Part shown: one piece after another, positions 28 to 30,761 of the stretch
How positions within the stretch are numbered: position 1 is the first letter of the stretch
How the letters are laid out: every line of letters begins with the position of its first letter
Notes under the pieces: generated by a model
Database searches by the model: none
What the model saw: the letters and a program-made list of their open reading frames with translations, nothing else
Told to the model about the DNA's origin: nothing
Made by a program: the position numbers and the translations under genes
From: a virus
Lineage: Duplodnaviria > Caudoviricetes
Virus record (IMG/VR): IMGVR_UViG_3300035498_000621
Span: 64,001-128,000 of that record
Length of the DNA: 64,000 bases
Direction: 5' to 3' (one strand)

Positions 28-210
28 TTAAATTATATAATAAAAGTCTTTTCTATTTAATATATCTAAATTATTTGCATCACACCAAAAATCTTTATTA
101 TTAAAAACTAAAATATTTCTACCATAATCCCATTTAAATATTCCTTCGAAATTAGGAAGTTTTATTAATTTTCCTAATTTTGCTTTAGGTATTATTTCAA
201 AATATGTCAT
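28..210 (-). CDS. small hypothetical protein (60 aa)
   Basis: ORF track; its ATG overlaps the TAA of the upstream giant gene (TAATG at 212-208); ends TAA. Confidence 0.7.
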   Translation of the reverse strand: MTYFEIIPKAKLGKLIKLPNFEGIFKWDYGRNILVFNNKDFWCDANNLDILNRKDFYYII

Positions 211-3200
211 TATTCCTATGATTTTCTATATATTGCATGTCCAGTATCTTTAGCAGATCTGCCAAAACCAGTATTATCAAATATTAAATACTTCCAAGTT
301 TTTTTACCCATAAGTACTTCACCAGTTTCTTTAAGCACTTCTACAGGAGTAGAATAAAATGGAGGATTCATATTTTCTCCAAAAAATTGTATAACATTAA
401 TTGGGCCTTTAAATTGATCATATGATCTTGAAGATGATTTATATAAAATTTCAGTTACTAAATTCTATAATACTGGATTATCTTTCATTCCTTTTTTATA
501 TTGTTTGTATGCTGGGTCTACTGCAAATTTAAATAAAGCTGCTAATAAGAATGACATAAGTATATCAGAAATTAATTTTCTCATATTAGCTTTAGCAACA
601 TCATTTCCTTTTATATATTGATATGTAGCTTTTATTCCATCTTGCTTACACATTCGAGCAGCATCAATAACCGTGTACATAATACCTTGCATAAGTATAG
701 GAACATTTTTAAGAACAGGAACACCTGTATCTTCGGTAGTTTGTCCGCCATCTTCTGTAAAGAATAAAGGTCTACCTTGCTCATCTGTGTCTTGTTCTGA
801 AAATAATTTAGATACACCATTTTTTTGAGGTTTCATAAAATATGTATTTACAATACCATTCATCCAAGTAGTAAACATACCAAATAAAGTTCCTAAACAC
901 ATATTTTCAGACATTGCTTTTTTACCTTTATCGTATGAACCATATATATTATCACCAACTGCACGAATACTCATAATTTCTCTATTAGAATATGGAGTTG
1001 GAAGGTCACCATCAGGTTCTATTGGAGATTCGGGGTGTTCCTAATTATATTCACGTATTTTAGATAAATATAATGAACGTTGTTTTTTATAATCAGGATG
1101 ATTAACGTCTTTAGCTGCTAATCTGTCAAATCGTTTATCTTTTTTCCAATCATAAACAAGGTTATTATCATCATCAATACTATATGCATCCCATACGCCA
1201 TCATGCATACATTTAGCTACAAATAAAGTCATTCTATTTAAAAAATCAGGACTTCTTAAAGTTCCATACATCCAATTATCATAATTAAAAATACCATTAC
1301 GACCAGATTTTGCTCTTTCTGTAATACGACCTACATCAGTATTAGACAAACGATATTTTAAACATAATTTACTTAATAAATTAACTGCCATAGCATTAGA
1401 TGTAGCATGAGTCATAACATATTGATATGCTTTTCTAACAGAAGCAGGATCAATATCTGTATTTAATTTAATAAGAGAACGAATAAAATTTTGTTGAATA
1501 CCTTCAAAGGCATCTCTAAACATTGAAACTACATTACCTCCAAGAAGCATATTAGTTACTACATGTTTAACAGGTTGTACATATCCAACAATTGCTTTTT
1601 CAGTTTTACTCATAATAGATGTATTAAATACATTTACTTTTAAATAGTCTTGTATATATTTAACTTCTTTTTCGACTACTTCTTCATTTCCAGCAAAATT
1701 TCCAGTTAAATGTAATTGTAAAAGTAAAGCTTTAGAGGTAACAAGAAGTTTATTAAGTTGAACAGTTGAAATATGTTTAGCTAGAAAATCTATCATAATA
1801 TTTTCAACATTTGTTTCAAAAAATTCTGGACCATATCCATTTTTTCTATCTAACATTTGTGCCCTCTTTTTAGCAATTTCTGTAGTAGAACTATTACTAA
1901 ATGGAATGCTAACTGAAAATGGATTTGTTAAAGTCATTTTATAAAATTTATCATTATCATTTCCTAAAAGTTCACGTTCTTCTTCAGTAAGATTATTAAC
2001 AAATTCATCAAATGCTTCACTAGCTTTTGTCATTCTTTTCCATGTATTTTTCATTTTAGCAGTAATTGCTTTTGCACTCTATCTAGAAGTAGCTTTTGAT
2101 GCTCTTTCTAATGGAACCCACAAATATTCTTCATGAGCTTTTATATATTCAGGAAGTCTACTATCATTAAAATCATAAGGAAATTTTCCATTATGAGTAA
2201 TCTATGCAATTTGATACAATATTGGTTTAAGCAATTCTCTTTCATGAGGTTTTAAATCATTAGACATATCATATGGATTTTTAAATATCATAAGATTTTC
2301 TCCAGTCATTGTATCTCTTTGATATAAATTATTATACTATTGAGCCTAATTACCAATAGACATATTCTATGCAGCAGTATATCCTGTTTCAGAATAGAAT
2401 TTATCAAATATTGGTCTAACATCTTTATCAAATGTACTTAAGAATTCCGAAGCAATAGTATCATGTGTAATTTGCAAATTGTTAACGACTATTCTAATAT
2501 TTGGATCAGGTACAGTAGCAGCTGTAAACAAATTTTTATTAACTGGATCAAGTTCAGTCTAATATGTAGGAGTTTCTCCAGATAAATTAAGATATGCTTT
2601 TGTTACTAAATCATATAAAATAGCCATATTTCTAGTTTGAGCACTTCCTTCTGTTAAAGTAGTCTTAAAATATTCAGGATCAGCAAATCTTTTATGTATA
2701 TCAAGAATTTGTGTCATTATATATTGCAATGCTTTCATTTGTTCATATTTAGTTTGAGCATTTTCAAGCTAATCAAATCCAAATTCTTCATATTCTGCTT
2801 TTACTTTGTCTGATTTTTTATCAACAATTTTAAGATATTCTTCTAAAATAGCTTCAACAGGATCTACAAATTGAGCAGCTCTAAAATTATTTTCTATTTT
2901 TAATTCATTATTTTCTACAATAGAAATAATAGGCTAAAAATATGTTTTATTAAAATGTGCAATATCAAATTTTCTAAAACTAGAACCTTCAATAGAACTT
3001 AATACTCCTAATGTTCCTAATTTTACATCACCTAACTAAGGTAAAATTTCATTAAGAAGTTCCATTGTTCTTACAGCTTCTATATTACCATAATCACCTC
3101 TTAAATCATTATATTCACCATCAAATTTATGACTTCCTAAAATATTTGTACCTTTTTTAAATCCAGCCTAAGTATTTAAATCAAATGCTGTTAATGATAT

Positions 3201-4772
3201 AATATCAACTACATTATCTTCATTTTCAAAAATAAGTACATTAGCATCAATTAAATCTTTTTTCAATTTCCAACCAGATTCTACAATTTTTCCTTCTGAA
3301 TCTAATTTAGGTAAATATTTATTAAATACTGCATTTAATGTAGTAGCAGAACCTCTTAAACCTTGTATTTTATCAAACATTGGAAATCCATGGTCATAAC
3401 TACTTTCAATTGCTTCTTTTAAACGTTGAGTAGAATAACCTTTTGCATCATCTAAATCAGAAATATATTGCTCTACAACTTTACGTATTTCTTCATTATT
3501 ATTTTTAGATTTAGCTGACTTAATTGTGTGTACAGTTCCATTTATAATAACATCGTAAGCATGATCAGGTTCTCCAACTTCTTTAATTACTAACTATTCA
3601 GTTCCAGTTGGATCAATATTAGGAGCAGCTTTAATCCATGCTCTAGCTGATCTTGCAATACCTTCTGTTCTTATATTAAATTCTGGAAATATTGCTTTAT
3701 TTACTTCATCAGCTCGTTCTATAGGCTTATCAGAAATATGAAAAGGAATAGTAGAACTTTTTATAAAAGCTTTTGCTTGATTTTCAAATTTATGCATCGC
3801 ATATTCAGCATTACTGTGTCTAGTTGAATATACTTTAGTTGGATGAATTGTAACTTTATTTACTTTAGAATAATCTGTATTATATTCTAATTGTACTGGA
3901 ATAATATTAAGAGTCATATTATTAACTTTTAATCCTTTACTAGCTAACATTTGTTTAAGAAATGCAAGTTGATATTTATATTTTTCCTCTTTTGTATTAG
4001 CCCATGTTTTTGGATCAGAAGCTGTAGTTTTAAATAAATAAAGATGTAATGTTCCATCTTCTCCGACAAATAGATAATCTATATGTCCAAGAATTTCTTC
4101 ATCCAATCCTTTAATTTTAGTAATAAGATTAATATTTTTAAAAGCTTTACTTCCACTAATTTTTCCTTTTTCTTTTTTATAAGTATTTTTTAATTCATTA
4201 AATAATTCTGTAAGTACACCAACACTATTTAAAGATTCAGGAATATCATTTTTAACGCTATTTATAAAATCTACATCAGTAGCTGTTTTATTTTGTATAT
4301 TTTCATTTACAAATAGTTTATGTAAAGCAAAAGAATCTTTTTGTATTTGTTCCCAACTTTTTATTATTTCAGCAACTTTTTTCTCTGCTAATTCTCGATC
4401 CATATCTTTAGATAATATATCTATTTGTCTTTTTATATAGTCTTCTCTATTAATAGGAGTAACAAGACGATTACCAGAAGGAAGAGTACAAGATTCACTA
4501 TCTATAAAATCAAGAATAGTTTTAGCTCCTTTTACTTGTGGTTCTCCATTTACTAATGAAGAAACATTAGCTGCTATATCAATTTTAGGAACATATTCAG
4601 CTTTTAATTCTTTAATTTTTTCTATCTATGCTGTTTGAGAAGCAACTCTACTATATACTATATCTGAAATCTTAAGCTTTTTAAAATCAAGATTTAATGT
4701 ATCTAAATGATTTAATAATTCAGTATATGAATTAAATGTCTATCCTTTTAATATATATTTACAATTAACCAT
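210..4772 (-). CDS. giant virion cargo protein (1520 aa, code 15) with degenerate PD-(D/E)xK nuclease-like domain
   Basis: Starts MVNCKYILKG(TAG); fragments 3594-4403, 3168-3380, 1041-2054 and 465-974 are in one frame and end at TAG; TAA at 212-210; motif GHIDYLFV..LYLFK..YKYQLAF at about 3950-4090. Confidence 0.85.
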
Positions 4773-7209
4773 AACATTGTTCTTTTATTTCACCTTCTCT
4801 AATTTGTTTAGAAATCCAATTTGAATACATACGTGATGTTTTTGTATTTGCAAAATCTAATCCTTTTGTCTAAAGTAATTGAGCTACATCAGAATTAAAT
4901 CTTGTAAATACAGATTCAATAGTTTTACCATAAAAGGATTGTAAATCATCTATTTCATTATTAAATATTATTTTAGTAGCATCTTTCATAAATCTATCCT
5001 AAGATATAAATATTTGTCTTAAATTTGGATCTATAGTTCCCATAACATAATTACTAAATTTTTCAACAAATATTTCTTCCATAAGATCCATTTCAGATAC
5101 TTCATTATATTTTCTTCTAAATCTATCTATTTCTTCTTTAGATAATTTACTTGCAACTAAATACATTAATTGTTCATAATTTTTTCTTAAATTAGGATCT
5201 GTTTTTAATACTCCTAATATTAAGTGAGAATATTCATGAAGTAAATCTGAAGATGATGCAATTGTAGTATTTATATAAATTTCATCATCTTTAATAAATG
5301 CTTTAGATGTATTAGCATTTATTTCTGGAAATTTTTTAGATATTTCTTCTGCTGATAGCATATTTATTTGTACTTTAAAATTTTCTTTAAGTACATCTGA
5401 AATTGCATTCATTAAAAGAATTATTGGAGTTCTTTTCTATTTTTTATATTCATCAATTTTAATAGCATCAGTAGGAATAATTCTATAATAATTTTTATTT
5501 TTACCTTTAATAAAACCTTTAGATTCAATATAATATGCTTTTTTAGGAGCATTATTAATCATATCAACAATTTTCTACATTGTAGAATCCTATCCAGTAC
5601 GTTCTCCAGATGGAACAAGTTCATTTAATTTATAAATAAATATTGTAATTTTTTCAGCATTATCTACTGTTTTAAAAATATTATTTTTAGTTTCTTCTGA
5701 AATATTCCATCCATTTACAATTTTTTTAAATGATGATAAATTTTGTCTGTCTTCTCTAAAAAGTCTATCTTCTCCATTTAGAATTCTAGTTCCTTCAACA
5801 ATAGGAACATCTAACGATTCTATAATAGATCCAACAATTAATGATTGTGAAGTATATAAAGTATATGAATCAAGTTCATCAGTATATTTTATTTGACCAT
5901 CATCATCTTTATAACGATCTCTATATTTAAATTCAAGAAATGCATTCTTTTTAATATCCTATTTTTCAACAGCACTGTCAATATATTTTCTTACCTCTTC
6001 TTCAGAATCATATTTTTTAACTTGATGTTGTTCAGTAAGATACCCTCTAGATGGAATAAATACTTCTTTTTCATTTTCTAAAAATTTATATATTTTATAT
6101 CCTTTATAATCTTCTTTATTAATTATGTCAAATGTATGAATAGTATCATATGAAATTCCATATTTTGATAAAATTGATCTAGGAACAGATTTTAAAAGAA
6201 TTCCTTGATTTGAATTACTTACATATTCTAAAGTAAAGTCAGGTTCTGCTGAAAATAAAGATTGTAATAATGTATAATATCCATATGATTCTTCATTAAC
6301 TTCATCAAATACTTTTGATAATTGTTCTTTTGTTTCTGATGCTGGTTTAGAAAAGAAATTATTAAATTTAGTTTTAGTATCTAATTTTAATTTTTCTAAA
6401 ATTTCTGGATGATAATTTTTTACTGCTGCAAATAAACCATCTAAAGTTAAATATTTTTTATTATTATCAAGATGTGTTATTTGAAGATTAATTGTATTTA
6501 CAAATTCGTCAGAATATGATATTCTATTACTATACTATAAAATAGTATTTAATGTTTTAGTTAAAATAGAATATGCACTACGATTATCTATATATATATC
6601 TTGATATTTACTTCTATTATAATGAAAATCTAGCATTAAATCAAAAATATTATCAATTTTTTTATTATTCTTATCAACTTTTTTATTTTTTTCAATAAGA
6701 ATTTTTTGTAAATCTTGATAATAAGCAGAAGTTTCATCAAAATTAAAAGATTGTTCTTCTAATTGCTATCGCACTCTTAAAAATTCAGCTAATTTCTAAA
6801 CATCTTCTTTAGTACCTTTTACTATAAATAATTCCTTACCTTGTGAATTTATAACTCTATTATAAATACTTCCGCCTTTTGTTGGTAATGTTAATTTATC
6901 TATTAACAATATATTAGCGTCTACATTTTCAGGAAAATCTACAGTATCAAATTCATGTTTTAAAAAATCTAAAGTACAATTTCCTATTAATCCTTCTTTA
7001 TTAATAATATTATTTAAAGAAACTTCTCCTAATTTAGATTGCTTATATAATTTATTATAAATTGAATCACATAATGTTGTATGCTTATCTTTATTATTTA
7101 TAAGAGCGTTTAATATGTCTTGATCAGTAAGTGTAGAAGGATCTGAATCTGTTTCCAGATCCAGATCTATTTCTTCTCCACCAACTGTAAATATTACTTT
7201 ACATTTCAT
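4765..7209 (-). CDS. virion cargo protein with zincin-like HExxH metalloprotease domain (814 aa, code 15)
   Basis: Starts MKCKVIF (ATGA overlap with the RNAP stop); fragments 6796-7215 and 4999-5412 in frame; LLHEYSHLILG...EEIFVE; TAA at 4767-4765. Confidence 0.85.
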
Positions 7210-10200
7210 TTGCAAATTTTCTATAATTGTATTGTACCTTGTCTTAATAACTAATTAATGGCATCTATAGTTTTATCAGTAATATTTCTTAAATTATCAA
7301 CTAGTTTATTAACTGTTTCTGAATAAACTCCTCCAAGAGTGAAATAACTGTTCTAATTATATATTCTAGCTAATGTATCATCTTTTGTTTCGCCATCAAC
7401 TTTAGGAACTATTTCACCAAATGGAACATATCTACCATTTTGTCTAATCATAAGAACTGGTCCATCTTCGGTATTTACTATAATAGTTGGATCTTTCTAT
7501 CCAATTTCAGAATTAACTATAGCAGCAGCTTCTTTCATCAAGTCAATAATACTAATTTGTAAATCTTTTTCTGAACCTTTATAGTCTAAATCTCCAACAA
7601 ATTGTAGATATTTTTTTATGAGTGAAAGTTGTCCAGTATTCTATATAAATGAATCAAATAATGTAGTCATTCTATCTGAACCATATTGATTTTTATTTGT
7701 AATTAAATTATATAAAACAAATATATCAGATAAAGATATACCATTTATTTTAATTTTCTATAATTCCTATAATCCTTTTATATATTTCTAAAATTTAACT
7801 TTACTATTAGGAGAATTTTCAATAGTAAGCATATCTATATCACATTTATATAAAGGCATATCGTGATCATCTCCGTTTATTAAAGACTATATAAATTCAT
7901 TGCTCATTAAAGATTTATCCTCAACTACAATATATTCTTTTTTATTTCCTTTTTTCTAAATATCAATATATTTTCCTTGTTTAAGCATTGGAATTATAGA
8001 ATTTTCAAATAACTATTTAAATGATGCTATATCACTTAAAGAATTAAATTCTATTTCTCCATCTTGTGCAGCTGGAATAACCTATCTTAATTCATTTAAA
8101 AGGCTAGATCCTTTTTTATATGGAATTTTAATATCTAACTGATTTACAAACTTAGCAATAATAGCATTATCTATTGCTTTTAATAGTCTAGTTTGCCATT
8201 CTTTAGACATATATCCAACTTTATATTCACCTTCTTTTAATTCTTTATAAACAACATCAAATTTTTTAGTTTTAATAGAAATATTATGATCAATATCTAG
8301 TACAGCTGAAAAAATTTCAAAAATACTATGAAATTGAGGAATCTAATCTATTATTTCAAAAATATTAATACACAATTTAACTTTATCATATCTATCTATT
8401 ATTTGTTGTTTATATTCTTCATCAGTGAATAATTTTTTAACATCGAGAAGTTCACCTTTAATTCCCATTTTCTCTTCTCTATCACTTAATATTTTTTGTA
8501 TAAATTGAATTCTTTCTTGTAAATCAGCTTTTGAAGTAGGTAATCCTTGATTAAATCCAAGAAGTCGTCCAAAATTACTAAATTCATTTGCTCCTTCAAA
8601 GATATTTTCAAATTCATCTATATCTTGTGGAATACTATTTAAAATTTCTTCTCGAATTTCTTCTTTGTTTCTTTTAGTAGCTTTATATATTGCTTCTACT
8701 TCAGTATCTATTACTGATTCTAATATATATTTAATTTCTTTAATAGCATTTAAAGCATTTTCGAATTCAATAAATTCTTTACTACCTTTTGGAAAAGTAT
8801 TTTCAATTCCTTCAGTAATGCCTTGTTTTAATTTCTTTTTAATTTCAGAAGTATTGTCAAGATTATTAAGTTTAGATAAAGTTCTATTGCTTAAAAATGA
8901 ATAATAATAATCTTTATAGTTACCTCTTGCAATTTTTATTGCATCTTGAATACTAAGATTCTATCCAGTAAATATATTTTGTTCTGTAATTGTATCAATA
9001 AATGATACTATAGGACTAGTCATAAATTTTACAATATCTTTAATATCGAATCCTAAAGTAACCATAAATAAATACATTTTAGCTAATTTATTACCCGCAT
9101 TAACCTTTGCTAATATTAGCTCTTTTGCATTCAATTTTGTTAATCTTATACTTTCATATAAGTTCAGACCATATCTTATTCTTAAATATTTAAGAATCCT
9201 CGCACTTCGGAATTACAATTCCTACTCTACTAAGTTCAGAATAAATTCTGCTTTTCGATGGTCGTTGCTCCTTTTTCCTTTTATAGGAAACTTGGATCAG
9301 GATTGTCCAATCTTTAACCTTATTACCATACCTGAATAATTACTTCAGCCACATAATATATTACTATTTATGCTTGGTAGTTAAAGCTCTAAGGATTTTC
9401 CCTGAGTTCACGAGGTATTTTATCCTACAGACTCTGCTTGTAATACATCTAAGTATTTGAGCTTATAATACATAGATGGCAGCATATATGGAAAAATTAA
9501 TTTTTCAAACTTTAGTCTTGATTCAGATTTAATATATATTTGAAATTGATTTAAATTATGTTGAATAGTACAATTTATTCCCCATTTTTTGATTAACCAC
9601 ATACATAATAGTTCATTTTCTTTCAGAGAAAAACAATGAGTAGCAAATATTCCATTATAAGTTCCATCATCCATAAACCAATATGCTAATGCTATAGGAT
9701 GATGTATTGTATCAAGATATTCTTGAGTTAAAACTTTTTTATTGTTAGGATAAAGTTCATTGTATATTTTAGTAAAAACAGGATGGGATTTACTATTTCC
9801 TCTCCATGACTTATATACTTTTCCTGTTCTAGTATCTAGATTTGATGTGTACAATTTATATGATCCCATAAATTCTCCAAGAATTTCAACTTTCTTAAGA
9901 AATAATTCTTCTTGTTTATTACTATGTACTAATGCAAGTCTAGAATTTGTATGTCTATTAAAAGTAGGGTTAGATAAATTTAAATCCCCTAATAAACTTC
10001 CTCTAATAAATTGGTCTTGAATTTCTGATAGAAATTGCTCAGTTTGAGAAAAATTTCTTATAATATTAAATTTTCCAGCATTTTCTCCTTTAGTTCTATA
10101 AGTTCTTATAGTAAGTTCTTTTACTCCAAAGTATTCTGCAATTTCTTTATCAGATTTACCTTCATTCCAAAGTTTTTCAAAAGTATCTTGATCTATTTGT

Positions 10201-16200: not shown

Positions 16201-19200
16201 AATATCTCATAGTACCAGGAATAATTACATTACGTTTAAACTAAGCATTTTGTGCAGCATTTTCTATTTTATAAATATTATCATTATATATTTTTAAAAG
16301 TCCATTTATCGCCGCTTCATCTTCTGGAGAGATATTTGGATCTTCTGGATCTATACTACGACCAAAATTTTGTATAGCTCTAGATATATCATAAAATGTA
16401 ATATTTCCACCATCATAATTAGGATTATATCCTTGAATAAATCCTTTATATAAATTTGCTCCTAATTGTCCTAAATCAAGTTTAGATAATGCTTTTACTT
16501 TATGATTAATTTCAGAACCAGTTAAACTAAACCTTAAATTATTTCCAACTAAATTATCAATCATAAAGAAAGTATTTAATACAGGATTTAATTCAACAGT
16601 TTCATTTTCTGATAAATTAATTTTACCAAAAGTTATATTTTTAACTTTTCCTGTTTTTTTATTTTTAACTTTTGCTAAAATCATTTTATTGCCTACAACC
16701 CACTATTTGCCTTGTGCATCAGAATCAGTAAGTTTAATAAGCATTTTCGTCATTTCATTACCAGTTCCATCTAAATATTTTCCATTTTCAGTATAATTTA
16801 TTTCAAATCCTAATCGTTTAGATAAAAGATCATTAATAAAACTAATTTTTTCTCTTTCTAAACGTTGATGTAAAGCTGATGGAGTATATAAATTATTAGC
16901 ATATTCATAAAGTAATTCATTAATAGATAAAATTTTTCCTGAAATTTCTCTATAATGAACATCTTTATATAATGTTACATTTGCATTTAATGCTTTTTTA
17001 ATAAACTAATCTGCTTTTGAATCATATTTTTCTTTTTCTTCTTCAGTTAATGGAGTTTTTAACCATTTCTAAACTAAATCAAGATTTACTTTTCCATTTA
17101 TTACAAATTCTGGAAATATTTTAGCATAATCATCTAATACCTAATTATATACTTCTTTATAAGCGGCACCAATAGTATTAATTATTTTCTATTCTACTAC
17201 TTCATTAAAATTAGCAGATCTTAAATCTGTAATTCCTATATCCTCTAAACTAACTTGATAAAGTATAAATTTTGTTTTATCAGAATATACTGTTGGTTGT
17301 GTATAAACACTACCATCTTTTAAAAATGGTGTAATAAATTTATTAACTATAGCATCATATAACAATTCTCCTTCTGTCATATTTTTTACTTGTTTTTTTA
17401 ATCCATCTCTAGTAATTACATCAGAATTAACTACTTTTGCATGAATAGCAGTAGGATTATTAACAAATAGCAATCTAGCAGTTGCTTTATTAGCCGAATT
17501 AGATCGAGCAAGTTGCTATTCAATTCTAGCACCTAAATATCCAGGACCATAATTAGGTAATTTATCACCATCAAGATTTGTAGTAACAGATTTAGAAGTA
17601 TCACCACTTAAAATGGCTTGAACAGTTGCAAAATCTTCAACCCATCTTTGTATTGTTCGCGTAGTATTTAACTAATAACCATCATATCTCTAAATAAAAT
17701 ATTCTTTTTTCTTTTTATCGCTTAAATCCTAAATTTTATCACCATAAACATCATAATCACTTAAAAATTTAAGTAATTCAGTTTGAGAATATTTATCACC
17801 ATTTGGTTTAGTTGCATTTTTAAATTGATTATATATATCAGTAACTAATAAAGCTCTAGATGCAGATAAAAACATTTCTTTAAAATTATTTTTATTCATT
17901 TTATTTATTAAATAAAATAATTTCAAACCATCCCTATCTTTTCCAAAAAAAGTGTTTTCAAACATTGTATCTAGAAAATCAAGAATTGACATAAATGTTT
18001 GTTCATCCTCATTTAAACCTTCTCGAGATAATAATCTATCTCTAGATTTAATAGTAGATAAATCAATTTTTTTAAGTAAATCAGTTATTTCTTTAATTTC
18101 AAGATTAGATGATTTCTAACCTTTATCAAGAAGATTTCCTGTTTTTGAAACAATTTTAAATTGTTTATTTTTTCCATTTACATTTAAAGTTACTATATAA
18201 TCCTTTTTATTAGAAGTTTCAATTTTAAAACGGTCTAAAATATCCTATTTATTATCTCTATTTATAGTAACTTTGTTTATATTATTAACAATATCAAATT
18301 TTGTTCTATTAGTTGAATATCGTACTTTTATAGAAGTTTCAATTATTTCAGAATCATGATCATATGTTGTTTGTAAATAATTCATCATTACATTAGAATT
18401 ACAAACTCCTAATAATGTATCAATAAGATTATATCTATCAGTATAACCATGTTCTTTTGTATATTCATTTTCAATAGTTTTCCAAGAATCTTTTCCTTTA
18501 AATACAGTTCTATATATAGAATATAAATAATTTATAGTATTTGAATCAAGTCCAAGTTTTTCTAATTCACTCAATAAAGTAATATTATTTTTATTTTCAA
18601 ACAATCGACTAAAAATAATTTCTAAATTTTGTGAAGGATGATTGTCAAAATCACTTACAGCTTTTCTAAAATCATTATCATTTTTAATTCTTGCTCCAAC
18701 ATCAAGCAATCTACATATTGATCCAATAAAATCTTTAGGCTATAATTTACTAATTTCTATAGATCGTGTATCATAATTATAAAGCGGAATACTCTTAATA
18801 AGAACTTGTTGAAATTTACTCATTTCTTTAAGAGAATCACGATTTTCTATACCAAAATTTCTATTTACAGCATTTTTATTTCCTCTAGTAAAAGAATATT
18901 TATAAGACACTTTAGTAATTCCATCATTTTTTTCTATTACTATAGGTTGATCATAATTATAATTAATATCAATATAATCACCAAAACATTCTTTTATAAT
19001 ATCATCAAAATATGTAAGATTTACATATGCATTAATTGCTTCATATTCTAAATTATCTTCTTTTCTATTAAACATTTCATTTTCCCAACCATCTTCTAAT
19101 GCCTATTCAAGTTGTCCTTTATTTTTTTTATCTTGAATATAATTATACATCATCAATAAGGCATTAGTATAATTTCTTTGAAGAATTTTTATTGAATTAT

Positions 19201-19843
19201 CACCATTTTTTCCTCGATATAAACTTTGTGGAACTTCTGATAAATCATATCCTTTACTTTTTAAAAATTTTCTAATGATTTTAAATTGTTCATCTTGATA
19301 ATCCATTATTCCTTGATTTACATCATCTTGATTATCAACAATTCTATGCTCGCTAATATCTATAATTGTCCTAATGCGCATTTCATCATTAAAATTAGTT
19401 TGTCTCTAATCATTTATAGCAGTACTATCACCATAAATTTCTTTAAGCACCTCATTAAGTTCTAATTCTCTGCGCTAATCTTCAGTAATTAAATCAGAAC
19501 CGGCTATATTTGCCTAAATATATTCTTCAACTTTAGTTAATGGTTTTGGAAGTAATTCTTCTTGAAAATATTTTCTTATTTTATTCTTTACAGATCTGTT
19601 TAATTTAATAGGAAGATTTTCTTTTGCATCTAATTTTTCTATGATAGTTTCAATTAATTCATTTATACTATCTTGATAAGATTCATGATTATCAGATGAA
19701 TCAAAACTAATGCTGAAGGTTTTACCCTCCAGCATAGTTTTAATATTTTCTAATATTTCATCTAAATTTTCTCCTTTCAAATCAGAAAAATTTAAATCTC
19801 CTGAATGTAAGGCTTTACTAAAATTTGATTGTTTACAACTCAT
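7206..19843 (-). CDS. giant virion DNA-dependent RNA polymerase of crAss type; 3 exons join(12895..19843,10435..11504,7206..9131), 3314 aa, code 15
   Basis: After removing two introns it reads ...SRIPAQTLQSFM...HWQTWL|QGSDYDIDKAYIMG (DxDxD catalytic loop) and ...ISQILSAATD|NAKELILAK; all track fragments between 15359 and 19852 plus 11200-11466 and 10822-11070 are in frame; ATGA overlaps at both ends. Confidence 0.92.
9420..10358 (-). CDS. intron-encoded LAGLIDADG-family homing endonuclease with N-terminal HTH repeats (312 aa)
   Basis: GSLLGDL and ALAYWFMDDG motifs; two HTH units (GLSNLKIAKELG, GKSDKEIAEYFG); ATG 10358 preferred over the track's 10412 because it lies downstream of the promoter; no TAG; TAA stop. 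Confidence 0.85.
   Translation of the reverse strand: MKKISEETIGKIKELYDQGLSNLKIAKELGIGNQTVSKYLKERFGIEKKKYVKQIDQDTFEKLWNEGKSDKEIAEYFGVKELTIRTYRTKGENAGKFNIIRNFSQTEQFLSEIQDQFIRGSLLGDLNLSNPTFNRHTNSRLALVHSNKQEELFLKKVEILGEFMGSYKLYTSNLDTRTGKVYKSWRGNSKSHPVFTKIYNELYPNNKKVLTQEYLDTIHHPIALAYWFMDDGTYNGIFATHCFSLKENELLCMWLIKKWGINCTIQHNLNQFQIYIKSESRLKFEKLIFPYMLPSMYYKLKYLDVLQAESVG
10382..10413 (-). promoter_or_regulatory. Bacteroidota sigma70-type promoter inside intron A
   Basis: TTTG-N20-TATATTTG matches the TTTG-N19-21-TAnnTTTG consensus, 23 nt upstream of the endonuclease ATG. Confidence 0.75.
11691..12803 (-). CDS. intron-encoded homing endonuclease: HTH repeats plus C-terminal Vsr/DUF559-like PD-(D/E)xK domain (370 aa)
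   Basis: Three HTH-like units; LRFDYYLPEFDILIEIQGKQHY...DNIKVNWC motif; the 3' end of the ORF runs into the ribozyme P/Q elements; no TAG; TAA stop. Confidence 0.85.
   Translation of the reverse strand: METKRKSPTKITDELIAKLKELVESGMKNTDICAELGIGTTTLTTYKKKYNIKYVKPTAEDYKKEIISLYQSGISVKDICSKLGYKSQTTIKNILNKYNVESNRDKEYKKLKEDIIKITPNCLSAYEVAKKVGCAPTTARKYIKELNLNLKVKTHLSDDDISNIVLEPLKYDFNEDISKISNADKKEFIVNKIKHIIVNTREYVSILILKNYNINSSLLNYYGIRLPDLNAEFGLISKYSSALEAYFAGFCDKYGILYESQKTFDDCVYKDKLRFDYYLPEFDILIEIQGKQHYEINEKFGGESFLLEQQEKDNIKVNWCKEHNKQLYVICYKDLYKKDYLETLLSQVLVAKSKSGELLGTPEVDNQQPS
12837..12868 (-). promoter_or_regulatory. Bacteroidota sigma70-type promoter inside intron B
   Basis: TTTG-N20-TATATTTG, 33 nt upstream of the endonuclease ATG. 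Confidence 0.75.
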
Positions 19844-22800
19844 ATTATACAACTATTATTTTTAATATTAGATAATGCATTAATTGTATTATTTAAAACA
19901 TTAGAATATTCAGGATCGGAATCATCTGTCATTGTTTGTAACTTTTCTTGAACTTTATTTACCGCTTTAGCAATAAGTTTTTCAGAAGCTATAGTAGATT
20001 CCTAATTACCTTTAAATGCTTCATTAATAACCGTTTCTATTGCTTTCTTTTCATCAGATTCTAATAAATTTGAAAGTTCAGTCATAGCTGCATTAATTTG
20101 AGAAATAACATCCTTGACAGTTCTTTGTGTTGAATTTGGTTCTGTAATATCATCCCAAACTAATTTTTTTCGTACTATTTGAACCGATTTTTTACTACCA
20201 TCATTTAAAGTCATTATTATAGCTTTTCCTTTTCGTTCATATGATTGAATAGATTTACCATTTAACTCTGGAGATGATGTAAAATAAATAAATTCTAAGT
20301 TATTTCCATTAATTTTTACATCCATTATTAAAGTATCCAATGGAGATAATTCTTGTCCTTTAAAATACTATGTAAATTTAGTATTTATTTCAGATTTAAC
20401 CAAATTATATAAATCTTCAATTGTATTAACTTTGGCTAAAGCTTTATTTGAAATAGTTATACCACTTTGAGAAAGACTTTGAATTGAAGCAGATTTTGCT
20501 TGTTCTAATATTTTATCAATTTCTGGTTGAGTAGATATTGGAGCCTATTGTTGAGTTTCTGGTTCAACGTATGGATCTAAAGAGATTCCTAGAATTGGAA
20601 ATCCGGGAACTACATTAGTTGAAAATAATTTTCTATTACTAGCAACAGGAGCACTAACATTTTCACTTCCATCTTCTTTACATACTAATATTGGATCTGT
20701 AAAGAATCCATATTTAAATTTAGCATCAGTAGCACGTATATCATCTTTATTAAAATCATTTTCTCTTGAAGTAGATATCATGCCATGGAACATAAGACTG
20801 AATAAATTTTCAATACGTTTGTCTAATATACCAAATGGCTATCCATCTTCTTTGTATAATGGTCTAATACCAGGATCAAATGCACCTTCTACAAAATCTG
20901 CATCTCTATCCATCTATACTTGATCGCCTGTTAATTTTTTTACTACTGATACCCAATCAAGAGTTTCATCTCCAAATTTAAGATAATATTTACTATTAGG
21001 ATTTTCAGCTAAACGATTATCAAATTCTTCAGGATCTACTGCTCTTACACCTATAAACTTATTCATTTCTATAAGTAATATAGGTAACATAGATAATGTA
21101 TCTTCACCAGGAAGATTAATTTCAGTATCTGTATCTTTACCTTCTTCATCATACATTTTAATAGATAAAGATCTATCTCTTGATACTTTTTCAAACCATC
21201 CTTTTGCTAATTCATTATCAATATATTTTAAAGCAATATCTTCTGCTTTTTCGCCTTCTTTTAAATTTAAAGGAATAACTTTATTAATAATATTATCAAA
21301 TAATGCATCAAGTACATCATTAAACTAATATGCCATAGATGGATTAATATAAATACCTAAAGTATTATTTACATCTTTATAAAATCCATCTTCTTTAAGA
21401 TTAGTAAGTTTTCTAATGTAAGCTCCATTTTGTGCATTATAACCAAGTCGAAATTCTCTTACTCGAGTAGCTAAACCATCATTAAAATCCCAAATTGGTT
21501 TAAGTTTCTTTTTATTTTCTTCTGAAACTTGTTTTCTATAATCTTCTTCATTAAGATATTTCTAATCTCCTTTAATTCTATTATATTCAGCATTATCTAA
21601 CTTACATAATTCTTCTACTTCTTTATCGGTAAGATTATTAGCTGTTAAAAATTCTTTATAATTAGCTATAAATCTCTTTAAATTAGATCTAAAATTCCAT
21701 GCAGATATATACATACGTATTGCCATTGGTTCAGAATCAAATGGAAGTTTATATGATACTCCTTTATTTGCAATAGTGTATATATCAGTATATTTGCCTC
21801 TATATAAAGAGCTAAACGATACACCTTCATTATTAAGAATAACCATTCTAACCTATGGAACTAAATCAGGATTTTGTCTCTATGCCATATATCTAGATTC
21901 AAGTTCACTTGGATTTAATAGCGCATTACTAGAAACATACATTACTGCTTTACCTTTTAAAGAAATTTCTTTACCATTAGAATCAGTCCAAGTCATATTT
22001 AATCCTGGAACATCATCAACTATAGCATAAATTTTAGATTTAACAGCGTACTCAGTTTCATTGTCATAAGGACTAAAACCAGTATTAATATCCTCTAATC
22101 TTAATTTTGAATCTCTTTTTATTAATGTAGTAAGTCCATTATTTTTTGGTGCATTAATTCTTTGAGTATATGTACCAGAATTAGATTGAGATATTAATTC
22201 ATCAATTTTATTTCGATAAGCAAGAATATTAGCATCCATTCCATCTAAATATTCTTGCAATTCAGTAGCATTTTCTGCTCCACTATCTATTCTTTTCTAA
22301 ATAGCATATTGAACAGCTGCTTTATTAGATATATTTGGATTATCACGATTTGGTCTTTCCCACACATCTGGATCTGATAATCCACCAATAGTTACTGTAT
22401 AAGTTTCTATTATTTGTCCATTATCATCTTTAACTGGAATTTTTGCTTTTAAAGTAATAACTTTTCCTTTAATTGCACGTTTATTTTGATCCAAATCTGT
22501 TAATCCAACTAATCTATTAGTTGAAGATTCATCTTCTACAGATACATAATATTCTACATCATTAAATGCTTCTTCTGGAATCAATAATTTAGTTTCAGCA
22601 GGAAGTCTATCATATAATTCAGTTCCATAAACTAATATAGATTTTAATTCCATTAATTTTTTAACCAATTCGTATTTTTCTCTACCTTTTTTAATTGTTT
22701 GTCCAGGTTGTAAAAATATTCCAAGGTCAGTTTTTGAATCATCTGAATTAACCCATTCATCTTGAGATGTATCAATTCCAGAATAACTAATATTACTATA

Positions 22801-25800
22801 AACTCGTACATGTTGAGTCATTTGTTCATAGTTTTTTCTTTCATCAAGATCAGACTATGCAATTTCACCTTCATTTCCAGAACTATTATCTTGCGAAAAT
22901 TCTTTTTCATCAGTTAATTGATCAACAGTTGTATTAGTGCCTTTAATTTTAGGCGAAGGAGGTTCTTCAGGTTTTTCTTCAGGTTTTACTTCTGGATTAG
23001 TAGTAGCTTCTTCCTCTTCTGCTTTTACATTAGATAAAGCCTGGTCTATTTGCTAAAGTCTTGTCTATCTAAATTTTTCAATAGCTGGTTTAATATCATT
23101 AGCTTTTCCAGTAAATTCATCCTGTATATTTGAAATAAATTTTGAAAGTCCTCTATCTATTAAAATAGTTCCTTGTCTACTTCTACTTATCATAGTATAA
23201 AGATCTTTCATAAAATAAACTAAATTTCTACCTTTTTTAGCAAAATCAGAGTCATCAAGATTTAATTTCCAATCTTTATCTATAACTACATAATCAAATT
23301 CCCTACCTTGTACTTGTAAAGGATCAATAACAACTACATTTTTTCCAGCATCTTTTAATTGTTTATAATATTCTGAAGATTCAGTTCCAATAAAACCTAT
23401 AGGATTTTCATCATCAGAATTGAGCTTTGCGATTAATTCTGGACTAATTGAGTCAGTAATTAATTCACCAGAAAATTCATCGCCATCATAATATTTAAAA
23501 ACAAACTGTTTAAAATCCTCATCAAAAATTTTCTTACTAGCTTCTATAAGTTCATCTTCTGTAGTAGCAAATTGCAACTAATCTATAATATTAATTGTAG
23601 ACTATAGATTATGTATTTTCTAAACATTATTATCTCTAAGAGAAATAAATAAATTAGGAGCTCTCCAAGCTAGTACAGATTCTCTATCAAAATTATACAT
23701 TAATCCATTAGCTCTAAATCCATTTTGATGATCATCTCCTAATAAAATTACATTAATTTCATTTTCTCGCGCAAATTTACTTATTATTTGTAATTCTACA
23801 GTATTAAAATGTGTTGCTTCGTCAATTATTATTAATTTAGGGGCGTTTTCTATTTTATTTACTTTAACAGAATCTTTTAATACACAAGTTGTATTTTCAA
23901 TACCTGATTCTTTAACATAATATTTTCCATTAGTTTTATCAATCCATTTATTTTTATCTACATCGTATTTTACACTAGTTAAAAATTCATCAGATTGTGC
24001 TTTTCCAAGCATTATTTCGAACATCTCTTCTTTAGACATTCCTTTTCCTTTTGGAAGTGTTTTTAATAAACCTTCTACTTGTGAAGAAGTAGGACCAGAC
24101 AACCAAGTATTTTCTCCATTATTAGTAGATAATTTTGTAACTGCATAAGTTTTTCCGGCACCGCCTACACCAGTTATAACTGTTGTATTATATAATACAG
24201 GAGCTTTTAATTTAAGTAAATCATTTCTTAAATAATCTAATGCTTGATTAATTAATTCTGGATTTTGTTGCTATGCTTGTGATAATTTTGCTACATATTC
24301 CTAAAGAGATAATGGTGCTAAATTTTTATTATTATTAATAAATTCTTTTAATTTAGTATAAAAACTAGCATCACTTAATGCAAAATTACTTATAAGTAAT
24401 GCAAATTTATCATAATCAGTTAGTTTAGAATAAGTAATAGTTTCATCAAGTTTTGATGTTATTTGATATTTTAAAGAACTAATATTTACTATTTTTGGAA
24501 GTATTGCATCTAAAATTTCTTTTAATGTAGTTCCATTTTTTGTAAATTTTTTATAATTTCTATGTAATAATTCTTCTATTTGAACAATACTAGATAATGA
24601 ATTATCTAAAGCTAGATCTTCATAACCATCAAGTAAATCAAGAGTTGGGCTTATTTTAAAAGCTTCTCTATTAACTTTATAAAATTCTAATCTTGCTTTA
24701 TTAAATGCTATATCACCATCAATAAATTTCTAAACTTTATCAGCTGTATTTTTCTAATGACGTTGAATCCAACGAGTTATTTCTTTTTGATAATTATTAG
24801 CTTCATTAATTAAAAAATTTCCAAGTTCTTCTGTTATTTCTGGAAGAGCTTTAACTTTACCAAATACATCAGAATGATTAGCTACAAATTCATTTATAGA
24901 TTTATTATGTCCAACTGGATTATCATAACTAGATTTAGAAGAAGCAGCATGTATAAAAGCTTTTGCCATTTCTAAATCTTCTTTAAAATATAATAATGCT
25001 TGAAATTGAGGTTCAGTTAATTGAAATTCTTGGGCACTTGCTCCTTTTGCGTACTATTGATATATTTCTTCAAGAACATCTTCTATATTAATATCACTAT
25101 TTCTAATTTTTTTTGATATTTGTTTAATTATAGGAAGAATTGGATTATTTATAAAAGAAACAGCTTCTAAATTATCAAGAGCTTTTAATGATTTATCAGA
25201 ATTTAAATCTTTAAAAATTTTATCCTTTAAAAGTTTTTTAATTTTATCAAAAGATTCTTTTGAAGCTGTATCTGTAAGAGTATTAATATAACCTTCAGTT
25301 ATTTCTACTACTTCGTCTCCTTCCTCACTATCAAAACTTGTAAGACCACTTTGAACACGATTATAAAAATCAATTATTTCATTATTAACTAAACCTTGAC
25401 TTTCTTTTGTATCAAAACTAAATTCATAACTTTCTAAAACATCAATAGCATCATTAACTGTTACTCCAGTATTTCCTTTACTTTCTTGATTTTTTATCCA
25501 ACTATCTATCCAAATATACATATCTCGTTTAGTTAACGGAGCTTCTGGATAATCACCAGTAATAAATTCTAAATCACCTTTAATTGTATCCCATTGGTCT
25601 AAATTAAGACGACCTTTATACTCCTAAATAAACTAAGCTTTTATTGATTCAGATATAGCATTTTGAATTTGTTTATAAAGTTCTTTTCTATTTTTTGGAT
25701 CAGGTCCAATAATTTTAATTATATTCTATAATTTCTATTGAAGTTCTGGATTATTTGGAATTTGTAATTGTTCAATAATATTATCGTAAACATTTTTTCT

Positions 25801-28800
25801 AAGAAGTCCAAGTGTAGCTTGAATAGTTCTAAATGTATTTTTATCAATTGGAATTTGACTTAATTCATTAATCCATTCATTTAAATGATCATTATTATAT
25901 TTTTCTATATCTTCCTATCTTTTTTGTTTTCTTTTCTTAAATTGTTCTTCATCTTCTCCTTCTTTTTTAATATGACGATATTGATAACTTTCATCAGATT
26001 CTCCTTCTAATTTAGAATCGTATGTTAAATATCTATTAAAAGGATCTAATTCAGCAATTTTTTTAAATTGTTCTATATCTTTAGATAAATCTTTATCTGC
26101 AAGTTTTTCTATTTCTGGATTAAGTTTAGACTGCATTTCTTTAAATAAATTAAATGCCTAATCCAAATCCATTCTTTTAATTTTAGAATATTCTTCGTAT
26201 TTTTTATTATAATAATCTTTTTCTGATTCAGTTAATTGAGAATATGTTTTACCAGTTGCATTTCTAATAAACTAATTTTTTGTAAGAGTCACAAATTGTC
26301 CACAAAGATTAGTATCTATAGCAAATAACATTTTCTCTACATAACCAAGAGAGCCTTCTCCAAACAAATAATCCTTTTGTTCAATTAAGTCTTGTTTTTC
26401 TTTTCTTAATTTGTCTAATTTTTCCTAAAATTCTGGATTATTACGTTTAGCAGGATCAGAAGTAGTATTTAATAGTTCGCTTATTTCTGATTCTTTATTA
26501 ACTATTTTCTAAGTAAGTTCCTAAAAATCTTGCTAATATTTAGTAATATAAGAAACTTCTTTTACATTTTCTTTATCGCCTTTTAAAAAATCAGTAAGTG
26601 CTGTAGCTCTATATTCACCCTAAACCATTTTATCAAATAATTCATCTTCTGAAAGATTTAATTGATTCTCATTAAGAATCATATCTAATTGATTAATGGT
26701 TTTCTTTAATGTATCATATACATAAGAACTCTAAGATTTATGATTTGCATCTGCTGATAAATAAACAGTTTTTCCATTTTCATCAGTTGTAGTATCATAA
26801 GATAAGTCCTTACTTCCTAATTTTCCTTTTTTCTCAAGTTTATCAAGTTCAGCAAAAATTTCATCTTTTTTACCCTATCTAAGTAAATAAGTAATTTCAT
26901 TTTGTATATCACTTGTTTTATTATTTCTATTACGAACAAGTTCTGCTCCATAGAATAAACCGCCACCGGCAGCACCTCCTAAGAATGACATTGCATATCT
27001 ATCGAAAAAATTTTCCCCAGCACCATAATCTGTTTGAGAAAAATATCCAAGTTTTCCAGCAAGTTCACCCATATATTTAGAAGCATCAGCTACTAATTCT
27101 TCTGAAACTTCTTCTAAACCTTCACCTAAAGATTTACCAACAAAACCAAGACTTCTATCTTTTATAGCTCCTCGATAATCAGAAACAGCTTTCTTTCCAG
27201 TCTATATGCCTTTTTGAATAAGTCCAATTATACCTTTTCTAGTTTGAGTTTCAGCTTGACGTATTCCTGCTGACTCCATAAGTAAATCAGCATTATGTCT
27301 AGCTGATTCTCTAATGGCACGTCTAGATGGTTCATCATTAAAAAACATTTCACCTAAACCAAGATATTTATCAACTCCAAACATACCTATAGTACTTCCT
27401 AATGCAATAGCAGCAGCTTCTAATGGAGTTCCTCCTTTTTCTAATACTGATTGATATACATCTGTATTAGATATAATTGCCATATATACTAAAGAAAGAT
27501 CTTGACCCATTTTCATTCTAGATTCAGCAATTTTCTATGCAGCAGGAAGATATTTATTTAATGCAGCTTTACCAAAAGCTGTTTCCATCCATTTTCCTTC
27601 ACTAAACATTGCTTTTAATTCTAATGGATTATCTGTTCCAATAAACTGTGTTAATTTATCAGCAGAAAGTTTACCACTATAAAAATCGTCAAGACTTGAT
27701 TTTGCTCTTTTAATATATTCATTTTGTGCTTTAGCATATGCAGTATTAACAGCACGCTCTCCGCCATTTGCTAATTTAGAAAAAGTATTTGCAATAACTT
27801 TTTGTTGTCCCCATTGTAAAGCAACATCAGACATTAAATTACCAAAATTTTCAAAACTAAAAGTATTTCCTTGTGCATAATCAGAAGTACTTCCAGTAAA
27901 TTTTTCTCCATATGCAGCAAGAGTATTTGCTAATTTAGAATTTACATCATCAGCTCCAGAAAATCCCATAGCCATACCATAAAGCATAGGTAATGATTTA
28001 CTCATTTCTCTAGCTACTAATAATCCAGAATATGCTGTACTAACATAAGGAATAAAAATTGGAAGAACAGCAGCAATATTTTTAGCTATAGTTCCACCTA
28101 CTGATTTTTCTAAATCATCAGAATCAAAAAAATCATATTTATTTGAAGAACTATTTTCAGAAGTTAAATAGTCTAAAGAAGATACAACTTGTTTGCCCAT
28201 TAATGAGCGACCATTTAATTTTTCTGTATAATATTCTCCAAATTCATTAACTTTCCATTCTCCTTTTTGATGTAAAGTTTTTCCAGTTTTTTCATCGACT
28301 TCATCTTCATCATATGTTGCATATACAATAGGATCATCAAATAAAGATTTAAAATATTCAATAGGACTTTCAAATAATGATATATCATTTACTGATTTAT
28401 CCAAATAAGTATCAGTTTCAGGATCATAAATTTTACTATCCTAAGCAAGTTCTCTACGAGATTTATTAGATTCAGACATTTCATTAAATCCAGATATACC
28501 TATAGATATATGTTCTGGATTATCTTGTGTTTGAATAGCAAAATTTGGATTTTTTATTTTTCCATTTTTGGGACGCATAACATCCCACATATCATATTCA
28601 TAATTATCTACAATATTTTCTGTACTAAACTTTGCAAATTCAGAAGCAGCGTTATTATAAAATTTATTAAATAAATCTTCTGAAAATTCACCTTTATCAT
28701 TTTTAAATCTATCATTTTCTCTAATATATCTACTTTTTAGATATTGATCTTTAGACAACAACTAAGTGTTGTCTAAAGACATATCTGAAATATATTGAAA

Positions 28801-28860
28801 ATCCCCAGCATCGAATGTAGGATTATTTAAAGTGGCTACAATCCAATCATTTTCTTTCAT
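19840..28860 (-). CDS. giant virion cargo protein (3006 aa, code 15) with central superfamily-1 helicase domain
   Basis: Starts MKENDWIV; fragments from 20002 to 28761 tile one frame joined at TAG; Walker A GVGGAGKT (about 24148-24171), Walker B IIIDEATH, LLGDDHQ, VQGREFDYV, LYTMISRSRQG; Gly/Ala-rich hydrophobic segments at about 26900-28100; ATGA overlaps at both ends. Confidence 0.88.
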
Positions 28861-30761
28861 TGTTCTAATTCTTTACTTTTACTAGATCCAAAATTATCTT
28901 GTTTTTTCCACGTCTAAGTAGCTTCTTCTAAATCATATGACGTAGACATCTTTATATCATTTTCATCAGCATTCATTCCATTTATAGGATTATTAGATAT
29001 TGGAATATATATATTTCCTTTATAAATATTGTCTCTTCCCCATCCATACCATGGATTTTTAATTTCATAGTTACCTCTATCCTTATTACTTAAACCAATT
29101 TGTAATAATGAATAAAGTTCAGGATCATCTCCAGCATTTATAAAGAAATTAGATGTAGTATCTTCAATATTAGAAGTTTTATTTTCAGAATTAACAATTC
29201 TTGCTTTATCACTTGTTAATCCTTCTAATATTACGAATCTACCAAAACGATCTTTTCTAGGAAGTCCTTGTGAATCAATCAAATGATCTAAATTAGCATC
29301 AGTTATAAGTTTTTTATACTTATTATTATATTCTTGAGTTCCTTGCTTAAGTCCACTATCTCGCATTTTTTTATCTATAGCTAAATACTCATCAAGAATA
29401 CTAAAATCTACATGACCTTCTTTCATAGGTAATGTAACTACAAACATTCCTGACCCAGCATTAACCATAACATCATTATAACTATTTGTAGAAATTTTAG
29501 CATCACCAAAAGTAATATTGCCTTTACTCTAAATTAAATAGCCAACACCAGATTGAGTTATAAAATCTCCAAGTGAACAATTATTTGAAATTCCAGGAAT
29601 AGCTCCATAATATTTACCAGTAGACGTCATAAATCCTCTTCCTTGTAAAAGATTATAACTACTAGTTTCACCTCCTTGTCCAGCTTGAACTTGACTCCAA
29701 TATCCCATTTTTGGATCTTCATCTTTACTATTTCCAGATGAAGATTTGCCCATTGCGTGATTTATAGATCCTTTATAAGATATTTCAGAAGTTAAAGATG
29801 TTTTATTACCACCAATTAAATACTAATATATTAAATATTCAATAGCTTTTTCTTTTTTATCAGTTTTTAATTTATAAGCAGCCCAAACTTTAACTCTATC
29901 TGGAAGTGTAGATTCTAAATAACTAGTTAAAGCTTTAATTTGACCAAGTTGAGATTCATTAATTATTTTATATTCATATAAACCATCAAGATTTATTAAA
30001 CCTTGTGAATTAATTATTTTTTGAAATTGTGGATTTTCTTTAAGTTTTTCTATTTCTTGCAATCCTTTAGCTGCTTTACTAGTAAATTGTCCACTTATAG
30101 TGCTACTAGTGTCACCAAGACTTAATTTAGCAGAGTCAATTAATTTCTAAAATGATTCAAATCCAACGCTATTATACATAGTATTAAAAACATCATTTTG
30201 ATCTTTAAATTCAGGAATATATTTTCGAAGATAAGCTACATTAGATACAGTTAATATATATTTATCATATGCTTCAGGATTTTCAGCATACTATTCAAGT
30301 GATAATTCTGCTAAATCTCCATCTCCTTTCTATATTAATAAATTTCCTTTTGGAGTAATAGCTGGTTCATGTAATGCGCCATTATTTATTGCAGTTTCTA
30401 ATGCTTTATCATATTCTTTTTTATTATCAACTACGTCTTTTACTTTACGTAATATGCGAGAATATTTTAATGATAAATCTCGTGGAGAAGATCCAGTAAG
30501 ATTTTCCATTACTAAGAAATTATCTATCTAATCAAACAAATAATCTTTTTCATTTTTAAGACCATCCATTTCTTTAACCATTGTAAATAGGTCTTTTATA
30601 GTTATCTTTCCTTTTGTATCTTCATCAGAGTCACTAGATGATTTAGAACTAGATGATTTACTTTTAGTACTAGCTGTACTTTTAGGTACATCTGGAACTC
30701 CAATTGTATCATATATAGTATAAAAAGATGATCCTTTTTGAAGTTTTGGTATTAATTTCAT
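28857..30761 (-). CDS. putative internal virion protein (634 aa, code 15)
   Basis: MKLIPKLQKGSS start; four track fragments in frame; TGA overlapping the next ATG. Confidence 0.8.

Follow-up and report, generated by a model that had tools for sequence, protein, structure and literature searches.

Why should giant proteins that otherwise nearly avoid cysteine carry it at precisely the ends where one protein follows another? This question is raised by four consecutive genes in bases 64001-128000 of the 161-kb IMG/VR virus record IMGVR_UViG_3300035498_000621, a genome rated 89% complete; this stretch of 64,000 nucleotides is called the window below. The genes encode, in order, a helicase-like protein, an RNA polymerase (RNAP), a zincin-like protein and a last protein that is a probable relative of crAss001 gp49. 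They are probably the virion-packed, injected cargo of a crAss-like gut phage, one of them being its RNAP. An initial annotation of the window had interpreted the cysteines at their junctions as docking tags that join the proteins into an ordered chain. Judged from sequence comparison, the terminal cysteines are conserved at the protein level, precisely at the facing ends of such proteins and never at the outer ends. We lean towards a bond, most simply a disulfide, between the C-terminal Cys of one cargo protein and the N-terminal Cys of the next.

The reading frames of the window are opened by reading TAG as Gln; genetic code table 11 and a code with TGA as Trp leave them closed. Every gene is on the minus strand. 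The first protein of the chain (19840..28860, 3006 residues) starts with MKENDW, contains a Pfam AAA_30 P-loop domain at residues 1559-1713, and ends with NNSCII (termini are given up to the stop codon), where Cys3004, the third residue from the end, is encoded by TGT at 19849-19851. The spliced RNAP starts with MSCK (Cys3, codon 19835-19837) and ends with QKICK (Cys codon TGC at 7212-7214, stop codon at 7206-7208). The zincin-like protein (4765..7209, 814 residues) runs from MKCK (Cys3, 7201-7203) through a HEYSH motif at residue 658 to KEQCYG (Cys812, 4774-4776). The last protein (210..4772, 1520 residues) runs from MVNCK (Cys4, 4761-4763) to YRKSQE. The six junction termini, and the absence of Cys from the two outer ends, are exactly as first annotated. 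Each facing end of these giant proteins has one Cys at 1-5 residues; the C-terminal Cys is followed by 0-4 residues and the N-terminal one preceded by 2-4. The window thus follows a head-to-tail rule (Cys within about 5 residues of facing ends, none at outer ends, and one pair fewer than there are proteins) at six of six inner ends and zero of two outer ends. ARAGORN found no transfer RNA genes in window 1-64000, despite the reading of TAG as Gln throughout.

Can chance, or a signal in the DNA, account for this placement? Cysteine is indeed rare in the chain, at 0.29% (25/8628) versus 1.11% in the window's other genes. It stands at 6/6 inner ends versus 2/58 other ends (Fisher p = 3.7e-7), which bears out the initial statement that the arrangement is unlikely by chance; the probability of six of six is about 2e-12. 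The three chain junctions all overlap (ATGA, ATGA and ATGGTTAA, in agreement with what was first noted) and share the pattern TGY...ATG...TGTAAA, which would favour the cysteines as a by-product of a nucleotide signal at overlapping junctions, that is, of translational coupling. We regard chance or such a by-product as extremely unlikely. The pattern is kept in hundreds of homologues, both Cys codons are used (TGT:TGC is 34:5 at the termini versus 84:8 inside, the same proportion), and the rule also applies where junctions do not overlap, where about 270 nucleotides separate the two genes (crAss002), and where the genes lie on opposite strands, as do crAss001 gp47 and DAC17_56, the first protein genes, relative to the RNAP genes of these phages. 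An internal control is provided by the 634-residue gene just upstream of the chain (28857..30761, minus strand), which lies outside it: this gene also overlaps the helicase-like gene by ATGA, and neither side of that junction has a Cys. A nucleotide motif or translational coupling is ruled out as the cause by opposite strands, gaps and codon use. Given the opposite strands, the gap in crAss002 and junctions without overlap in relatives (locus L003), the coupled 1:1 synthesis that had been proposed from the overlaps falls outside the rule. Split inteins and protein trans-splicing are also ruled out, because at most four residues follow the C-terminal Cys and there is no room for intein blocks around the junction cysteines.

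The terminal cysteines are conserved in relatives of all four proteins. A full HMMER scan with the zincin yielded 308 relatives, of which 114 of near full length were used for counts at the termini (last five residues for the C-end, residues 2-6 for the N-end). The C-terminal Cys is present in 114/114 of these and the N-terminal Cys in 104/114. Homologues of the last protein have the N-terminal Cys in 112/120 and a C-terminal Cys in 0/120, Cys4 being invariant, and homologues of the helicase-like protein have a C-terminal Cys in 119/120 and an N-terminal one in 0/120. Full-length RNAP homologues end with a Cys and one further residue in 25/25 cases, and an N-terminal Cys is found in all 45 homologues with a correct start. 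Each apparent exception that was checked at the DNA level proved to be a mis-called start; in a test for co-loss, too, every checked homologue that lacked a terminal Cys was such a mis-call. Upstream of the common RNAP start MINLSKLE, in frame and immediately following the stop of the helicase-like gene, stands MKKC, and three zincins without an N-terminal Cys (P0130, P0044 and P0064) acquire (V)SKC or MKC from upstream starts. The in-frame M-x-C start beside the previous stop looks like the true RNAP start. Public annotations and gene calls often misplace this start (L005:12152; L011:10996; P0457-P0510). The outer ends of the chain are themselves conserved: the free N-end of the helicase-like protein (window 28837-28860) reads MK[QE]NDW[IL]V in nearly all 120 homologues, and the free C-end of the last protein is conserved as AYIKSQQE. 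These ends may be leader or docking signals.

How general is the rule? The catalytic region of the RNAP, searched against IMG/VR, gave 49 related loci (L015-L063) that use table 11, TAG as Gln or TGA as Trp, codes found among close relatives of the same gene order. Cysteines are found on both sides at 153 cargo junctions of the 49 loci, and on 0/45 outer C-ends. Junctions with Cys on neither side are non-cargo only, either from an intron open reading frame (ORF) to an exon or from the last protein to the next gene. A check of terminal cysteines across Crassvirales had been suggested in the initial annotation, and it found the rule kept at the facing ends and the outer ends free (0/24, 12 genomes).

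The clearest case is phage phi14:2, whose three proteins have 4 Cys in 5,398 residues, all at facing ends. The single Cys of gp078 (1797 residues, ending NTIC) is its last residue, the crystallised RNAP gp077 (2180 residues, MACK to QECK) has two, C3 and C2179, and the single Cys of gp076 (1421 residues, starting MSCK) is C3. In crAss001, the single Cys of gp47 (2341 residues) stands three residues from the end (LRCNS), gp50 has C5, C1334 and C2404, and the single Cys of gp49 is C5; DAC17 resembles crAss001 in its terminal cysteines. Arrangements of two proteins, with one facing pair, are found in p-crAssphage-like phages, cr8_1, crAss002, cr55_1 and Flavobacterium phage Fpv1. These contain the same modules in the same order with part of the block fused into a covalent single chain, and no Cys pair marks the join: the fused Fpv1 gp33 (4401 residues) has one Cys, at position 4400, and in the fused cr55_1 gp070 the join is free of Cys. 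According to Drobysheva et al. (bioRxiv 10.1101/2020.03.07.982082), phi14:2 delivers its RNAP to the host together with its DNA, and some phages have the three proteins fused; they assume cleavage of a polyprotein, not linkage of separate proteins. At the other extreme, locus L032 and ten sister contigs, a clade with TGA as Trp, have five chain proteins (L032:13254-15907). An extra protein of 334 residues (MSAKNC to RKGCE) is followed by a shortened zincin of 554 residues (MAC to KEYCE), and the only two Cys of each are terminal. The zincin profile did not match the 334-residue protein. Among the sampled lineages, n separate proteins thus have n-1 Cys pairs for n from 2 to 5, independently of the gene arrangement, and fusions have no pair at the join, as a head-to-tail link predicts.

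An alternative is that the terminal cysteines anchor each protein to the portal, the inner capsid or other cargo, or form homodimers, and so serve packaging or retention. The crAss001 virion does contain many inter-subunit disulfides, in the portal-vertex protein gp57, the tail hub and the ring proteins (PMC10172136). Lone C-terminal cysteines also occur in the p-crAssphage-like gene b and in crAss002 gp30, and a protein starting with MAQC in loci L060 and L063 has no facing donor. We consider anchoring unlikely, since it leaves unexplained why the outer ends are free of Cys (0/120, 0/120, 0/45 and 0/24), why the counts at C-ends and N-ends match in all arrangements but one, and why the only cysteines of a protein added in the middle are those at its two ends.

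Could the cysteines instead have a role that involves no link, as a cysteine-switch lid on the zincin, a redox sensor, a processing mark or a modification site? When 48 zincin sequences are aligned, the invariant columns are C3, C812, N647, D655, the HExxH residues H658, E659 and H662, and E711 and E712. In crAss001, crAss002, cr8_1 and p-crAssphage the first protein has the HExxH domain close to its C-end; phi14:2 and cr55_1 have it in the N-terminal portion of their last protein, and the window encodes it in a separate gene. Across families the protein that hosts the domain varies, but the domain always adjoins an RNAP junction (loci L004, L005, L006, L009, L010 and L011). The HExxH domain precedes the C-terminal Cys by 150-250 residues in the window zincin, crAss001 gp47, crAss002 gp32, cr8_1 gp92 and p-crAssphage, which would suit a lid. 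In a model of the zincin with a predicted local distance difference test score (pLDDT) of 86.7, Cys3 opens an N-terminal β-hairpin and Cys812 is in a flexible tail; a flexible tail would suit a lid as well, yet the tail has low confidence and the model shows no sign of it docking anywhere. Moreover, proteins that lack a zincin domain have terminal cysteines too (both RNAP ends, gp49-type N-ends), 4-8 cysteines are more than a single active site can use, and their placement at facing ends only is left unexplained. We therefore judge a non-linking role to be very unlikely.

If the proteins are linked, which chemistry joins them? The facing cysteines could share a metal ion (Zn or Fe) or another bridge with the same head-to-tail topology. 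All of the comparative evidence for pairing applies equally to such a bridge, which would form in the reducing cytoplasm. Acidic residues beside the Cys in the window clade (I-K-E-x-C at the zincin C-end, G-C-D at many N-ends) could add ligands. Across the order, however, only a single Cys is conserved and its neighbours differ (NTIC and MACK in phi14:2, LRCNS and MSKRC in crAss001), two thiolates alone make a poor zinc site, and disulfides are already documented in the crAss001 virion. We consider a shared metal improbable. A disulfide is the simplest choice, since families have no conserved residue in common here apart from the Cys.

From the placement at facing ends we infer the following mechanism. 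The cargo proteins would be selected to be nearly free of Cys, as ejected phage proteins tend to be, except at their facing ends. A disulfide would form in the assembled virion between these ends and join all four proteins, from the helicase-like to the last, in a single linear thread of about 8,650 residues. With very short stubs at the joints, the proteins could travel through a narrow channel together as one unfolded string; in the reducing cytoplasm the thread would come apart or undergo processing. The Cys link would then be the equivalent in trans of the gene fusions of other crAss-like phages. To the wider proposal, that Crassvirales tie their injected proteins into one covalent disulfide thread, as a reversible stand-in for fusion that provides equal numbers, fixes the order of ejection and comes apart in the cytoplasm, we give an even chance. 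The initial docking-tag interpretation is supported in part by the comparisons, through the facing-end placement and a number of pairs that tracks n-1; its overlap-coupled synthesis is not supported.

A co-folding check of terminal domains, also suggested in the initial annotation, was made for one pair, the C-domain of the zincin with the N-domain of the last protein, using P0004 and P0204 (99% identical to the proteins of locus L002). The score was 0.50 (runs 0.43, 0.50 and 0.54) and that of the best of three controls 0.00; at least 41% of contacts recur between the runs, and the pLDDT of the partner does not fall below 53. In calibration, 58/80 solved complexes and 2/110 mismatched pairs reached the mark; at or below 0.60 there were only 7 solved complexes, together with both passing mismatches. 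The pair thus passed its controls in a weak zone of the calibration, and the predicted models weakly support docking of the zincin on the last protein.

Several points weigh against a head-to-tail disulfide. The co-folding pass lies in the weak zone just described, with no contacts reported. Cysteine counts alone are compatible with other pairings, such as the RNAP closing on itself. The C-terminal Cys of crAss001 gp50 lies 9 residues from the end, a distance that is not minimal. In L060 and L063, the most divergent clade, the Cys of the helicase-like protein is 15 residues from the end, and an extra gene of 576-651 residues between zincin and last protein (L063:15921-17876; L060:16307-18037) has a MAQC start and 6 Cys, none of them at the C-end, which breaks strict parity. 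Lone C-terminal cysteines without a facing partner occur in p-crAssphage-like phages (KQSCR in gene b, and RCGGLRR), and crAss002 gp30 (FRCGGKKKIA) has a lone Cys near its C-end without a facing N-terminal Cys; these lone-Cys, cargo-like proteins were located at L005:157-3645 and L011:301-1974. Virions are assembled in a reducing cytoplasm and the gut is anoxic, which is awkward for disulfide formation, and no thioredoxin or glutaredoxin was found in the 89%-complete genome. A search for an Erv-type oxidase had no match in the genome either, but its control matched nowhere, so that it is uninformative. In Intestiviridae, the RNAP block is closely followed by thioredoxin genes (L005:25835-27102; L009:25699-25968).

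Homology together with Cys depletion suggests that these proteins are packaged and injected. The family of the window RNAP aligns with the family of crAss001 gp50, DAC17_58 and phi14:2 gp077 around the catalytic motif (hhalign probability 95.3%, E = 2e-8, 325 columns). Exon 2 of the window gene begins (V)QGSDYDIDKAY and uninterrupted homologues read WQTWLQGSDYDIDK, so that both contain the DxDxD motif. The last protein aligns with five gp49-type proteins (probability 72%, E = 3e-5, 281 columns); it has no Pfam match, and its initial label as nuclease-like was not confirmed. Homologues of the helicase-like protein did not align with the gp47 family (hhalign probability 0.4%), with which they have no more in common than their place in the chain and a C-terminal Cys. 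Sequence searches of Pfam, PHROGs and the PDB named none of the giant proteins except for AAA_30 in the first. A phmmer search of the window proteins against crAss001 proteins found nothing, and tblastn against phages gave only two weak matches. A Foldseek search of the PDB with the zincin model had no match at E <= 0.001, the best being the zincin domain of anthrax lethal factor (E = 0.09).

The window block resembles gp47, gp50 and gp49 of crAss001 and gp65-gp66-gp67 of phi14:2 (GenBank gp076-gp078), which are also giant consecutive proteins. With the crAss001 block it shares the DxDxD two-barrel RNAP (GSDYDIDK in the window, GSDFDVDK in gp50), the zincin HExxH domain and the terminal-Cys rule. 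It differs from both phages in having four proteins instead of three, a zincin encoded by its own gene, TAG read as Gln, and an RNAP gene that is interrupted twice; unlike in crAss001, its first protein has a superfamily 1 helicase-like P-loop domain and no detectable similarity to gp47. In crAss001, gp47, gp49 and gp50 belong to the virion cargo and have to unfold in part on their way through the tail (Bayfield et al. 2023, PMC10172136). The disulfides of that virion were seen in cryo-electron microscopy maps between structural proteins and demonstrate that crassvirus particles use inter-subunit bonds of this kind; none was reported for the cargo, which is not resolved in the structure. Neither this atlas (PMC10172136) nor the phi14:2 preprint mentions the terminal cysteines (0 occurrences), and we found no description of the rule in the literature, as the initial annotation had surmised.

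A second known system that ejects a giant virion RNAP with partner proteins through the envelope is that of the N4-like phages, in which Cys is also strongly suppressed. The N4-like RNAP is a T7-like single-subunit enzyme, unrelated to the two-barrel RNAP. Ejection proteins of this group (N4 gp50-52; DEV gp71-73) are virtually free of Cys, which was attributed to passage through the periplasm (PMC11445570). There the suppression is near-complete (0.00075% Cys in gp71 homologues), whereas the window proteins keep an invariant Cys at each facing end; depleted inside and invariant at the termini, they do not belong to the Cys-free ejected proteins of the Schitoviridae type. Further large proteins with 0 or 1 Cys are encoded upstream of the chain, at 30758-33730, 35692-37842, 34765-35688, 54212-55291 and 28857-30761 (990, 716, 307, 359 and 634 residues, respectively), and may be additional ejected proteins of the fully Cys-free kind.

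The RNAP gene of the window is interrupted twice, which the initial annotation had overlooked; its chain total of about 8,650 residues holds after splicing. The frame comprises three exons at about 19843-12896, 11505-10423 and 9131-7209, separated by two insertions that contain ORFs, all on the minus strand. Exon 1 (12896..19843, 2316 residues) ends with SHWQTW just before the catalytic motif. Insertion 1 (11506..12895) contains an ORF for a helix-turn-helix protein of 370 residues (11691-12803) and sits 3-4 codons before the catalytic GSDYDIDK (DYDID) motif. Exon 2 (10423..11505, with approximate boundaries) begins (V)QGSDYDIDKAYIMGLSFD, which includes the DxDxD motif. Insertion 2 (9132..10422) contains an ORF for a LAGLIDADG_2 endonuclease (9420-10412, PF03161, E = 8e-33), and exon 3, with the stop codon, covers 7206..9131. 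An Rfam scan of both insertions matched no intron family, neither group I nor group II. In many relatives the RNAP is interrupted a few codons further on (LQGSD|Y), which points to repeated invasion of one site.

The cargo considered here, which the virion structure leaves unresolved, includes the RNAP that starts infection. The rule is general in crAss-like phages and suggests that the proteins are tethered end to end, probably by disulfide bonds, in a manner that has not been described. One Cys per facing end and almost none elsewhere makes for a hypothesis that can be tested cheaply in cultured crAss001, DAC17 and phi14:2. If true, the link would explain how cargo genes can be freely fused and split, and would help annotators to recognise true starts and members of the cargo in metagenomic phage genomes that are recoded and riddled with introns. 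If the proteins are indeed linked, a megadalton of unfolded protein would pass the tail as one string, a new principle by which viruses deliver proteins.

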